Source: Eledone cirrhosa (taxonomy: Eukaryota). Taken from it: a stretch of 64,000 nucleotides of DNA. The stretch's first letter is position 1. Each line of letters begins with the position of its first letter. The position numbers and the translations under genes are program-made. The notes under the pieces are model-generated. The model did no database searches. It saw nothing but the letters and a program-made list of their open reading frames with translations, and had not been told where the DNA came from. Positions 12,553-50,701 of this stretch are shown piece by piece. The stretch is from assembly GCA_964016885.1 (NCBI GenBank), contig OZ024747.1, positions 88,412,001-88,476,000 of the forward strand, given 5' to 3'.

Positions 12553-12742
12553 ACACAAACACTCCATCTCAATTCTACTTTTGAAAAGTACAAGAACTGC
12601 GAAATCGGTAAAGGAACCAAATAAATATATCTTTTTTAAAAAAGACTTCAGTTGCATTTTCGATTTCACCTTTTTTCCTTATACTTTCACTCGTGTAGGA
12701 CACCTAGTTTTTTTCATTTTGTAAAAACACCTCACTTTGTAA

Positions 12743-12829
<87 letters not shown>

Positions 12830-13519
12830 TCTTCTGTATAATCAGGGTAGAGTATCTGCAGATTTCTCATTAGTTCTGCATAAATATTCTCCTTTTCGCT
12901 AATCTTTGATATATTGCCATCTGCTGGACAGCTAACTTCCACTACTGTGCATGCCTTCTTTTCCCTGTCCCATATTATAATATTTGGTCTGTTATACCTG
13001 CATTTTATTGGTGTTTTTACTGGAACATTCCACCAGTACTCTTTCATATTATGTATATGTATGTCTTCCACATTGCTGTAGCTTTTAATGTGTTTATTAT
13101 CGGGGCTATCTTTTCTATGGATTGCATTGTACAGTTTTTTTGGCCACTACATCATGCCTCATAGGTAGATAGTACCGCAATGAGATCTTTGGACAGCTGC
13201 TTATGACATGGGTGACATCTTCGATGTTAATTCTGCAGAGTCTGCACTTGTTATCACATCTAGGTGTTTTGCTTGCATCCCTATCTCTTTTGTGAATCAG
13301 GTATTTCGTGTTGATTTCCTGTTCTTGGATTGCAAAAGCATATCCTTCAAAGTGGGAGCCAATATAGCGGTTGTTGGTCCAAGATAGACTATTTTCTTTA
13401 TCTATATTACTTTCACTCTGGAGCTTCCTGGCAACATATCCATGCATGATTTTTTGCTGATAAGCATGCAGTTTTTGATCCATGGATTCACTGAGATACT
13501 GCCGAGCAACTTCCCTGGG
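12830..13519 (-). mobile_element. R4/Dong-clade (R2 superfamily) non-LTR retrotransposon fragment: CCHC knuckle plus restriction-like endonuclease
   Basis: AIQEQEINTKY...CRLCRINIEDVTHVISSC...RHDVVA (ORF 13115-13483), then YWWN...[23 protein letters not shown]...EKENIY (ORF 12679-13071). Frameshifted; bounded by (GT)n and (GTAT)n. Confidence 0.88.
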
Positions 13520-13769
13520 TGTGTATGTATGTATGTATGTATGTATGTATGTATGTATGTATGTATGTATGTATGTATGTATGTATGTATGTATGTATGT
13601 ATGTATATGTATAATATATATGTAGAACTAGAATTTAGCTTCGAGCACATCTGTATACAAGGATGTATTGGAATTTCGTATTTTTTAAAAATACGGCATG
13701 TTTATAAATAAACATTTAGAAAGCCGTAGCTATGTAAAATCACTGGCGGCTATCACCATATATATATAC

Positions 13770-17502: not shown

Positions 17503-17593
17503 ACAAAGAAAGTGTGGGAATATACCAGGTGCACCATTACGCAACAAAGTATTCGATACTTAGGGTAGTAGAGTGGGTAATAGGAAAATAGAC

Positions 17594-17689
17594 GGGACCC
17601 CGAGGGCTGAGCTCCGGCCGTTTCAACAGCTAGATCCTGACTGTTCGGATCTAGCTGTCGAAACGCCGGAGCTCAGCCCTCGGCGTCCC
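17594..17689. repeat. GC-rich ~96-bp hairpin
   Basis: GGGACCCCGAGGGCTGAGCTCCGGCCGTTTCAACAGCTAGATCC / GGATCTAGCTGTCGAAACGCCGGAGCTCAGCCCTCGGCGTCCC with a 9-nt loop. Confidence 0.9.
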
Positions 17690-17979
17690 AACTCTTTTGC
17701 TATATATATCTATATAGATTAAATGTATGTGTACAATTCAATCGAGAAGGAGAGAGCACAAATTAGTTTGTGAGAATTATAATCCAGTAGCAAAGAAGGT
17801 AGAGTGCTCCATGCGTATATAATGCAAGAGAAGCGTACAGCGAGAGTTTGTAAGTGAAATACAAGCCAAGTAATAAATATATAAGCAAAGCGTAAATATC
17901 AAAATTACAGTAGGAGAAAATACAACCCAATTCTTGAAAAATTATTTAAGAATTTGGTTGTATTTTCTCCTACTGTAAT

Positions 17980-18025
<46 letters not shown>

Positions 18026-18069
18026 AATGGATGGCGTAGACATTAGTAAGTGACATAGTAAGTGACATT

Positions 18070-18524
18070 AGTAAGTGACATAGTCACTACTTTACAACAA
18101 TAGCGTAAGGTCTTCAAAATGCTTTTAATTAAGCATACAGTGTATTGCAAAATACACTATATATTCATTCATATATATATCGCTATTTCAGAGCACCAAT
18201 TCTAATTTTCAATTTTTGCTGGACCGGCAACCGCTCTGTATAATCAGTTCCTGATTATTACTGGAATTCTATAAGAATCCAACATTCATAATTTTCAACA
18301 AACAAGGGGAGTGCTAAGCTCTGAGGAATACCAACACATGAAACAGAGATCTGTCAGCTTATCTCCCTTTGTTTGTTGAAAAAAGAAGTAAGTGACATAG
18401 TCACTACTTTAAAACAATAGCGTAAGGTCTTCGAAATGCTTTTAATTAAGCATACAGTGTATGTATTGCAAAATACACTATATATACATTCATATATATA
18501 TATATCGCTATTTCAGAGCACCAA

Positions 18525-18530
<6 letters not shown>
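18070..18530 (+). mobile_element. Retrozyme-like element copy 1 (317-bp monomer, ~1.4 units)
   Basis: Direct repeats 18070-18205 and 18387-18530 (period 317) enclose a hammerhead; the element is flanked by (TA)n. Homolog at 50180-50520. Confidence 0.78.
18315..18361 (+). ncRNA. Type I hammerhead ribozyme
   Basis: TAAGCT-CTGAGGA-ataccaacacat-GAAAC-AGAGATCT-GTC^AGCTTA. Perfect 6-bp helix I extended by a ~19-bp outer stem (18292-18311 / 18362-18382); helix III ACAG/CTGT; GUC site at 18355. Helix II is weak or mutated. Confidence 0.75.
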
Positions 18531-18558
<28 letters not shown>

Positions 18559-27879: not shown

Positions 27880-29930
27880 AACATTAGAATTTAGAACACT
27901 ATGCTATTCGTTGGTTTGGTAAAAATATTATATATACTTTAAGATCTTCGGTTACTAAGTTACTTGAAAATTTAAGATTATAGTTCATGATAGTGTCGTT
28001 CTTTTTTCTTAAAATCATTCTAGTTTATTCTATATAATTCTTTCCTCGCCCTCAACACGTTATTATGTACTTTGATTTCCGAAAGCAGATATAATAATAA
28101 TTTTATTTTTTTTATATTGTCCTTGTTTAAAATAGAATTCTCATTCTCCGGCCAAGTTAAACCTTATTCCACAGTTGGATCACTTGCGTCTTTTAACTGT
28201 TGGTTTTGTTGTCTTTGAACATTATTTCGAATTTGCTAACATTCTCTTGTATGATTATAATAGTACGTGTTTGTAAAACGCGTGTTATTCTGGCACACAT
28301 TTTCATCATCGGTACATTAAAAATAATAATACAGATTTTGTTGTTTCTAGGATTATTTATTGTAAAACTTTCAATTTAGGTATAGAATGTAGTTTTGCTT
28401 TTTTTATTATCCAAATATCAATTGTCTTGGTTGTATTCTCATTCTATTATCAATTAAGGGTGGTACATATCATATCTGTATATCATTAAGTTTTAAAGCC
28501 GTTTAGGCACAAAAATTGTGCATTTCCTTTAAACTAAATTAAAAGGTATATTTATTCTAGTCTGATTCAAGATGCATGAATAATGGATATTACTGCAAAT
28601 CTGAATGTTTCAATTTGACTGCTGATTTCCATTACTAAAATATTTACAAATTATAATTTCGTTTAAATGTTTTCCATTGTGTATAGTGTATTATAACTTA
28701 TTTCATTTAGTAATTTTTTTAATCATTTAATTCTTTGTATTTTTATTTATAAAATAAAGTAATATTATATATATTTCCAGTTCCTTTTGATAGAAGGAAT
28801 TTCCATATTCTGTATCGATTCTTGATACATTGTAGTTTCCAAATATATCATACCTGATTTGCAAAGGTTGATGATACTTTGGTGCACAGAATTGTGTCGA
28901 TAATGGCTAACAGTTAAATGTGAAGTAGTTATGTTGGAGAATAAATTATAACCCTCCAAGTATTAAGTATTTTTCTATACGTACCGGAAACTCATCTACA
29001 AAACTCTCCAACCAGAATTTCATGATAATTAGGATTGTTTGCATATAAATTCACTACATCAAAAGATAAGTAATTTCTTTAATTATTTGTTTCCAGAAGG
29101 CGATTCAGCATACCTAGGTCATCTCTTATAAAAATGTGAACGTATTTAAGAAATTATTTCAGTATGATGGCTAAACGATTACTCAGATGGTGGGCATCAC
29201 ATGTTGGACCCGCTACTATTGATCTTAATTTTAAATCATTTAACACATATAATTATGGATCCTTGATATACTTCACTTATTTTTCTTTTGTGAATTTTTG
29301 AAAAGCCAAAGTAAAGACTAGATTTACGTTCTTTATCGGTTAATTCTTTTCGACACACGAGTAAGAAGACTACAATATGTTTTTATTACTTTCTGTTGGT
29401 TTTAGTCTTCAATGTTTCCCTAGTAGATATTGATTTTAGCATTGGAAAAAAAATTATAATAATACTCAGTAGCTATTAATGCAACGGCACCCCCTTTGTC
29501 AGTTTCATTAATTGTCAATTCATATTTATTTATCAATTCAATCGTATTCTAATTCAATAGTGTTGAAATTTGATTGACTTCTTTTTTTATGTATTATATT
29601 ATGTGGAGAATCCAAAATGTCGTCAATAAAAAAATGAAGTGCTTATTCCAATCTTTTGACGAAGAAGAGTTACTTCTATGTTTAACAAGTGATTTATCAT
29701 TGCTATTTTGATTAGATAAGTATTTTGTGAGCTGAAATTTTCTACAGAATTCTAAAATATTTAATTATATCTCAGACGGGTTGGGGTAAATTGAAGCCCT
29801 TTTGCTCCTATACTGATTTGTTGTATTCCTAATGTTTATTACTTTTAGTTTATCTTATTTGATTGCTTCCACTGCGTATATCTGTTCCTCTACACAGGGT
29901 AAAGAACGGTTACCATAATTTGCATTGGTT
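27880..29930 (-). pseudogene. Decayed Penelope-like element ORF (RT plus GIY-YIG region)
   Basis: Colinear minus-strand motifs KGLQFTPT (~29790), TINETDKGGAVALI (~29490), LKLRSIVAGPTCDAHHLSN (~29210), SFDVVNLYANNP (~29050), NNPRN (~28345) and a C-x-G-x-G-K-N-Y-I-like endonuclease motif (~28040). Many stops and frameshifts. Confidence 0.82.
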
Positions 29931-50179: not shown

Positions 50180-50514
50180 AAACATACAGCATATTATCAA
50201 ATATACTATACATACATCGGTATTTCAGAGCACTAATTCCTAATTTTTGCTGGACCGGCAACAACTCTGCTTAATCAGCTCCTGAACATTACTGGAATTC
50301 TATAAGGATCCAACTTCTATAAGTCTCGGCAGAAGCGAAAGGATATGCAATCTTGATAGCCGCTAACGAGCGAGAAACAGTTGTCGGCTGTTTTCCTTTG
50401 TTTTCGCCGAGACTAAGTAAGTGACATAGTCACCACTTTAAAACTCATAGCGAATGGTCTTCAAAATGTTTTAAAATAAACATAAAGTATATTATCAAAT
50501 ATACTATACATACA

Positions 50515-50520
<6 letters not shown>
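50180..50520 (+). mobile_element. Retrozyme-like element copy 2 (~298-bp monomer, different permutation)
   Basis: Shares TATTTCAGAGCAC, TTTTTGCTGGACCGGCAAC, ACTGGAATTCTATAAG and AGTAAGTGACATAGTCAC with 18070-18530. Terminal direct repeat AAACATA..ATATTATCAAATATACTATACATACAT at 50180 and 50478. Decayed hammerhead CTAACGA..GAAAC agtt GTC (50363-50385). Confidence 0.78.
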
Positions 50521-50560
<40 letters not shown>

Positions 50561-50563
<3 letters not shown>

Positions 50564-50701
50564 AATTGCTTCGAAAGGACTAGAACTGTTTCATTCGGGA
50601 GAAATCATCAGAAATCCATTTCTATATTAAATATTTATACTCTGCTATGTATTGAGTAGCTCATTTACTGTGGTTACCCCCGATTGAACCCGGGATAAAC
50701 T
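50561..50701 (-). mobile_element. Short TA-inserted element with hammerhead-like core, copy 2
   Basis: Minus strand GGATTT-CTGATGA-tTTC tccc GAAt-GAAAC-agtt-CTA-GTCC; homolog of 23886-24020. Confidence 0.65.

Follow-up and report, generated by a model that had tools for sequence, protein, structure and literature searches.

A hammerhead-bearing tandem repeat in (TA)n

The window (the whole 64,000-nucleotide stretch of DNA analysed here) contains a short tandem repeat that the original prediction assigned to a retrozyme-like family with a type I hammerhead ribozyme and a probable circular RNA intermediate, raising the question of what this element is, how its copies entered the genome and from which template they were made. 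The predicted 1.4 tandem units of a 317-bp monomer are present on the forward strand, where self-search places a first unit of what we call subfamily A at 18070–18386 and a partial second unit, corresponding to monomer positions 1 to 137, at 18387–18531 (1.43 units in total, 92% identical over 145 columns). The monomer consists of a chassis of small hairpins common to all subfamilies (18070–18281, forward strand) and a long ribozyme-bearing stem that differs between them (18292–18382, forward strand). All seven named arm pairs of the hairpin chain described previously lie where they were expected, six as perfect reverse complements and one with a G-U wobble. The final ~26 nt (18506–18531, forward strand) form a “tail” between two 3′ end sites of the family, a short one at about monomer position 111 and a tailed one at about 137, and the window copy is single-armed with the tailed end.

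The placement of this copy inside (TA)n stood for one side only. Repeat annotation identifies a left (TA)n (17985–18023) and a right (AT)n (18530–18558), both likely parts of the target, and the right end of the element abuts its microsatellite directly, but the left end is separated from it by about 46 nt (18024–18069, forward strand) comprising ~21 nt of filler and a stuttered 13-bp segment from the beginning of the element (3.4 copies, array at 18039–18081). Allowing up to 4 mismatches, the filler occurs nowhere else in the window, and a comparison with 266 loci gave no significant match. Similarly, the second copy near 50 kb exists as described (50181–50527, forward strand, ~1.1 units, with the short 3′ end followed by (TA)n), but it is only 74% identical and belongs to a different subfamily, B, with another ribozyme whose U3-A8 core is mutated.

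Several other repeats lie around the insertion. A small repeat that contains a long palindrome adjoins (TA)n at 17505–17702; it is abundant and matches 41 of the 266 loci. A hairpin-forming stretch immediately left of the target (TA)n (17900–17985) matches none of them. To the right of the insertion, ~50-bp inverted ends at ~18575 and ~19195 enclose the CA-rich interior of a further element.

The ribozyme and its family

The canonical-core hammerhead with helices I and III on a long stem was read correctly: CTGAGGA starts at 18321, GAAAC starts at 18340 and GTC ends at 18355, inside a type I motif at 18316–18360 (forward strand) whose helix I comprises 5 bp (18316–18320 with 18356–18360) and whose helix III comprises 4 bp with a palindromic loop. 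The position numbering and the predicted cut at 18355/18356 follow the standard hammerhead consensus. Helix II pairs over only 2 bp in the window copy compared to 4 bp in the family, where 24 of 41 sense-strand ribozyme rows (47 printed minus 6 reverse duplicates) are identical with a 4-bp helix II. Contigs of four sequencing runs matched to 18040–18530 confirm the family helix II and show loose (AT)n ends at the tailed site. The window copy itself is one aged copy of a non-coding repeat of ~315 bases, and it is incapable of yielding a monomer because it carries one ribozyme only and the helix II of that ribozyme is broken.

The covariance-model check suggested for the hammerhead gave no match: no hammerhead appears among 12 Rfam matches (E up to 10) on 18020–18540 or among the 150 of 201 matches listed for the whole window. 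Our ribozyme call is based on the motif and its covariation. Compared to shuffled sequences, the monomer (z −6.9) and the stem region (z −6.3) fold well, with no shuffle folding as well as either. Folding of circularised natural monomers gave z values of −1.3 to −10.4 among the monomers listed (−7.6 for the window), and the reverse strand folds about equally well. The family has the CUGANGA / GAAA / UH core, helices I to III and open helix I of a type I hammerhead, and its RNA is predicted to self-cleave.

Searches of the 3.0-Gb genome returned 1,446 matches to an exact 30-mer of the element, 4,247 to a 24-mer with 1 mismatch and 12,538 to a 22-mer of the tail with 2 mismatches, with no matches for any of the respective controls. 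A DNA search with the window element gave 1,878 first-look candidates, and among the 40 that were scored are 30 loci of 96% to 98% identity, the window itself aside; searching with subfamily B gave 2,909 candidates. The typical A ribozyme occurs exactly 151 times and the typical B ribozyme 37 times. Subfamily B has the same chassis (except for the ATAATCAG hairpin, which is absent from it) with another long stem and a UUGAUAA core, and at least seven types of ribozyme cassette can be read by eye on the one chassis. As a 317-bp, low-GC, non-coding and self-paired monomer that carries a type I hammerhead whose helix II pairs in the family at large, the element has the makeup of a retrozyme monomer (150 to 450 bp), so its designation as retrozyme-like is supported.

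To judge from the letters, the ribozyme is under selection, with covarying core positions 3 and 8 and compensatory changes in its helices. Of the 157 cassettes that were parsed, 106 have C-G at positions 3/8, 39 have U-A and 12 have other combinations, and helix II pairs 2, 3 and 4 are kept in 146, 145 and 142, respectively, by several types of pair, though these counts stand for a handful of lineages and not for 157 events. Subfamilies B and C have a mismatch in place of the first helix II pair. An alignment of 16 monomers has 73 consensus pairs, of which 16 are compensatory; 14 of these belong to the stem and ribozyme and 2 to chassis hairpins. The 30-mer sample does not include some further subfamilies (L242, L244, L261 and L263), which have a U3-A8 core, begin helix II with a G-C pair and differ in their chassis hairpins. 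In addition, 12 contigs from a run labelled organism B match the element at 18040–18530, one of them across an A-type ribozyme, and the family may therefore occur in a second species.

Copies end at two fixed 3′ sites and often carry two arms

We sampled copies by their position, in order to avoid length bias, by taking the first 100 of the 1,446 exact 30-mer matches; these lie on one contig and yielded 97 arms, including two pairs of segmental duplicates. The expectation of freely permuted ends in a genome-wide tabulation failed at the 3′ side. There, 47 of the 97 arms end at monomer positions 100 to 113 and 26 at 132 to 144, with 24 elsewhere, so that two sites ~26 nt apart take 73 arms; (AT)n follows directly in 48 arms. 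We reject random permutation of ends around a circle on the evidence of these two fixed sites. The 5′ ends alone vary: they spread over more than 300 nt, with 14 of 97 short of the ribozyme cut site, 3 at it and 80 past it, and copies thus do not all share fixed ends as those of an LTR element or MITE would. Fixed 3′ ends together with variable 5′ ends point to priming of the kind used by Penelope-like elements (PLEs) followed by 5′ truncation. Most ends lie inside (TA)n, where a target-site duplication is unreadable. More than one unit is covered by 35 of the 97 arms, 5 cross a second cut site, and the longest arm in this sample measures 587 nt.

An inverted piece of the element lies on the 5′ side of 59 of the 97 arms. 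Across all loci we found 63 such head-to-head insertions, in 23 of which one or both ends fall elsewhere than at the two sites. The 40 classifiable pairs comprise 37 that combine a short with a tailed end, 3 with two short ends and none with two tailed ends (p = 9e-9 versus independence). Neither arm at locus L002 is a simple fold-back of the other because one extends further 5′ and the other further 3′.

A candidate Penelope-like partner

Mobilisation by a PLE, which the original prediction considered, agrees well with the two 3′ end sites, the pairing of short with tailed arms and the like ends of a resident PLE group. We consider it very probable that the element is a PLE-mobilised, non-autonomous hammerhead element, whatever its template. 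PLEs have already been proposed as mobilisers of retrozymes (Cervera and de la Peña 2020, PMC7229834, available text). A PLE protein was moreover described to cut and extend both strands of AT-rich DNA, with two internal starts of reverse transcription (RT) that define a tail (Frangieh 2024, PMC11167929, available text), and this both-strand cutting with two RT start sites explains why the copies have fixed ends, a tail and two arms.

Searching the genome for PLEs with a GIY-YIG domain gave 10,597 first-look candidates, of which 150 were scored, and one open reading frame (ORF) with RT and GIY-YIG domains carries a linker cysteine motif like that reported for Neptune and Nematis in the available text of Craig 2021 (10.1101/2021.04.23.441226). 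Where relatives of a resident PLE protein carry a species name, they are mostly from bivalves, at 46% to 50% identity, which hints weakly at a mollusc as the host. One PLE group ends in TTCA followed by (TA)n, like the short end of our element, with a further tail before another (TA)n, and of its 5 two-armed loci, 4 combine a short with a tailed end (L072, L080, L107 and L108) while L061 has two tails. By eye, this group also carries a hammerhead-like motif of the U3-A8 type. On its shared end architecture only, the resident Neptune-type, TTCA-ending PLE group is a candidate partner of the family.

No ORF with RT and GIY-YIG domains was found in the element or linked to it at the loci examined. 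Homology to the monomer, including in the pLTR, is absent from 50 PLE loci apart from independent insertions at L062 and L106, and the masked flanks of 60 element loci share no common body, only scattered pairwise matches that we read as other repeats.

The same loci offer several observations on PLEs and their neighbourhood. One Neptune-type PLE copy has a short 3′ end formed by (TA)n, into which a two-armed copy of subfamily C has inserted (L062:2438–2871). PLE groups at L061, L062, L064, L072, L094, L101, L103 and L104 differ in the hammerhead-like motifs of their 3′ regions, one group having U3-A8. In the window, an unrelated second hammerhead-like motif (50552–50660, reverse strand, core at 50611) abuts the (TA)n 3′ of the 50-kb copy; similar motifs lie next to the PLE ORFs of L099 and L103, and 30 of the 266 loci match it. 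Broken remnants of a Penelope-like RT ORF lie at 28256–29899 (reverse strand; 27% to 57% identity in tblastn), and fragments at 12682–13627 (reverse strand) resemble a non-LTR retrotransposon with a restriction-like endonuclease.

A circular or a linear template

Read-through of the cleavage junction, as seen in the 80 arms that extend past the cut site, is the rule and agrees with the original prediction. We counted 2 indels over 1,153 positions at the cut site, compared to 0.4% to 0.9% elsewhere; the junction is seamless, showing that the template was continuous at the cut site and consequently either circular or an uncleaved multimer. Scars of RNA editing were sought as an excess of A>G over T>C changes and not found in 6 tests of subfamilies and regions (p = 0.06 to 0.86).

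More-than-unit length, previously taken as a trace of RT around a circle, does not on its own prove one, given that partial tandems are normal for PLEs (Craig 2021, 10.1101/2021.04.23.441226, available text) and that one dimer is a DNA duplication. At L228:1626–2345, 317 bp were duplicated within an aged copy of 1.3 units, i.e., the dimer was made at the DNA level after ageing, and extra length therefore need not stem from RT. Such duplication is an RT-free route to new two-ribozyme sources. L231 resembles L228 in that the sharing of variants within one arm is absent from the opposite arm. More generally, opposed arms share 89 rare variants versus 11.8 expected (154 pairs at 81 loci) and direct repeats within arms share 13 versus 4.1 expected (72 pairs at 61 loci), though both sets of pairs are non-independent and inflated by sub-subfamily structure; repeated segments within arms are already ~6% different. 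The family is too aged for DNA alone to settle the circle question.

We nevertheless think that the template was probably a circle, a reading favoured by read-through being the rule, by the rarity of two-ribozyme sources, by the lack of a long array in the lists examined and by the conservation of the core through repeated change. The window copy lacks a second complete ribozyme; family members that have two include L228, L231 and L232 and, within the first 100 listed of the 151 exact A ribozymes, 2 same-strand pairs.

The main alternative, to which we give a distinctly smaller though real chance, keeps the same PLE insertion but has it copy a linear RNA, that is, an internally uncleaved multimer or read-through transcript with a 5′ end perhaps made by one ribozyme cut. 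The element would then be a short non-autonomous PLE whose dimers are regenerated by DNA duplication between overlapping repeats, as the DNA-level dimer at L228 would illustrate. Unprocessed RNA is indeed the dominant PLE substrate in vitro, where the ribozyme is dispensable (Frangieh 2024, PMC11167929, available text), and the longest position-sampled arm reaches just the 587 nt given above. Among 247 arms, 34 reach the second unit, and 21 of these end just before the second cut site (16, at 4 to 33 nt) or at it (5), while 13 go beyond, with a few of these ends being mapping artefacts at inversion joints; this crowding would also be expected if the template were linear and its 5′ end made by cleavage. 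The truncation rate rises after one unit from 0.0051 to 0.0110 per nt (n = 96, p = 5e-4), which we do not use as evidence because it is compatible both with a circle and with finite linear templates. Several observations, however, speak against a linear multimer: 5′ ends do not accumulate at the first cut site, only 5 of 97 arms pass the second one, and no long array appears in the lists examined, where the first 100 entries of each of three motif lists and all 37 typical B ribozymes contain at most two same-strand matches spaced by one unit. The repeated compensatory conservation of the catalytic core would also be less needed with such a template than with a circle.

Much less probable is a cleaved linear monomer on which RT, having reached the 5′ end, jumps to a 3′ end, either that of the same molecule or that of a second monomer. 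A few arms do end within 5 nt of the cut site and end-to-end jumps are known for other target-primed RTs, but the near-absence of indels at the junction and the ratio of 3 arms stopping at the site to 80 passing it already largely exclude this route. Least probable of all is an ordinary MITE, LTR fragment or plain satellite spread as DNA, with a hammerhead present by chance or as a passenger. Fixed 3′ ends with inverted arms can mimic terminal repeats, and folding is about as good on the reverse strand, but the spread of 5′ ends and a short-plus-tailed pairing foreign to MITEs or LTR elements refute these identities, and the inverted arms are variable head-to-head pieces and the covariation of core and helices lies on one strand.

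Proposed mechanism

Taken together, the family is likely a non-LTR retrozyme whose RNA is predicted to self-cleave, likely circularises and would be copied into (TA)n by a PLE enzyme. By analogy with published retrozymes, rare two-ribozyme copies would be transcribed, the RNA cut to 315-nt monomers and these ligated to circles. A Neptune-type PLE protein, our proposal for the enzyme behind the observed ends, would then cut both (TA)n strands, with RT primed at two internal sites ~26 nt apart. From there, RT would run back across the ribozyme junction and at times beyond one unit, as the read-through in the copies indicates, on a putatively circular template. Both target ends may often prime, one per site, and the two cDNAs would join head to head; the resulting anatomy is what we observe, while the order of events is conjectural. 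Aged copies of more than one unit may also expand at the DNA level, as observed at one locus. A more elaborate version, which we offer tentatively and hold as somewhat less likely than not, is that a dimeric Neptune-type PLE enzyme primes both cut (TA)n strands at two obligatory sites on one 315-nt circle, with the chassis as the enzyme-binding part and the hammerhead swapped or re-evolved in at least seven ways, including flips between C3-G8 and U3-A8, while its function was kept.

Comparison with known retrozymes and Penelope-like elements

The class of element and the U3-A8 variant are already published. Like the metazoan non-LTR retrozymes of PMC7229834 (available text), our family has monomers of 310 to 341 nt with a GC content of 32% to 39%, is non-coding and highly self-paired, carries type I hammerheads and comprises several ribozyme variants in one genome; the mismatch at the helix II base likewise has a counterpart in the axolotl HHR_Amex2 motif. 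The family differs in consisting of dispersed fragments of up to ~1.9 units as opposed to dimers and even long multimers, and in its two-armed (TA)n insertions with two fixed 3′ ends, which are absent from the description in that available text. Cleavage and circles were demonstrated for those retrozymes, whereas the present family is known from its DNA. The available text of Li, Clavereau and Pollet 2026 (10.64898/2026.07.22.740005) likewise reports co-occurrence with PLEs, many monomeric copies and a proposed mobilisation by PLEs, but its evidence is distribution and pLTR homology in vertebrates, whereas our link is the anatomy of insertions, with no pLTR homology in the 50 PLE loci.

With EN+ PLEs such as Neptune and Poseidon, as covered by the available texts of Craig 2021 (10.1101/2021.04.23.441226) and Frangieh 2024 (PMC11167929), the element shares 5′ truncation, partial tandems, an inverted 5′-truncated copy, a one-ended tail, AT-rich or microsatellite targets, two internal RT starts and a hammerhead. 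It differs from them in having no ORF, a tail of ~26 nt compared to 30 to 40 and a ribozyme with full helices I to III on a long stem instead of the minimal PLE form.

A search that covered neither most subscription papers nor repeat databases or supplements found no published description of this family or of short-plus-tailed pairing in a retrozyme. The route by which retrozymes re-enter the genome is proposed and not demonstrated in the literature compared (available text of PMC7229834 and 10.64898/2026.07.22.740005). The copy ends described here match the in vitro tail mechanism of PLEs (PMC11167929, available text), with strict short-plus-tailed pairing in two-armed insertions, and naming two start sites and a candidate enzyme group makes the re-entry step testable with the existing in vitro PLE assay. 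U3-A8 in place of C3-G8 is also seen in the Cercyon PLEs of Schistosoma (Cervera and de la Peña 2014, PMC4209133, available text), but unlike that variant both core types occur here as full-size ribozymes of sister subfamilies on one retrozyme chassis. The family also provides a natural set of hammerhead variants that share a single scaffold.
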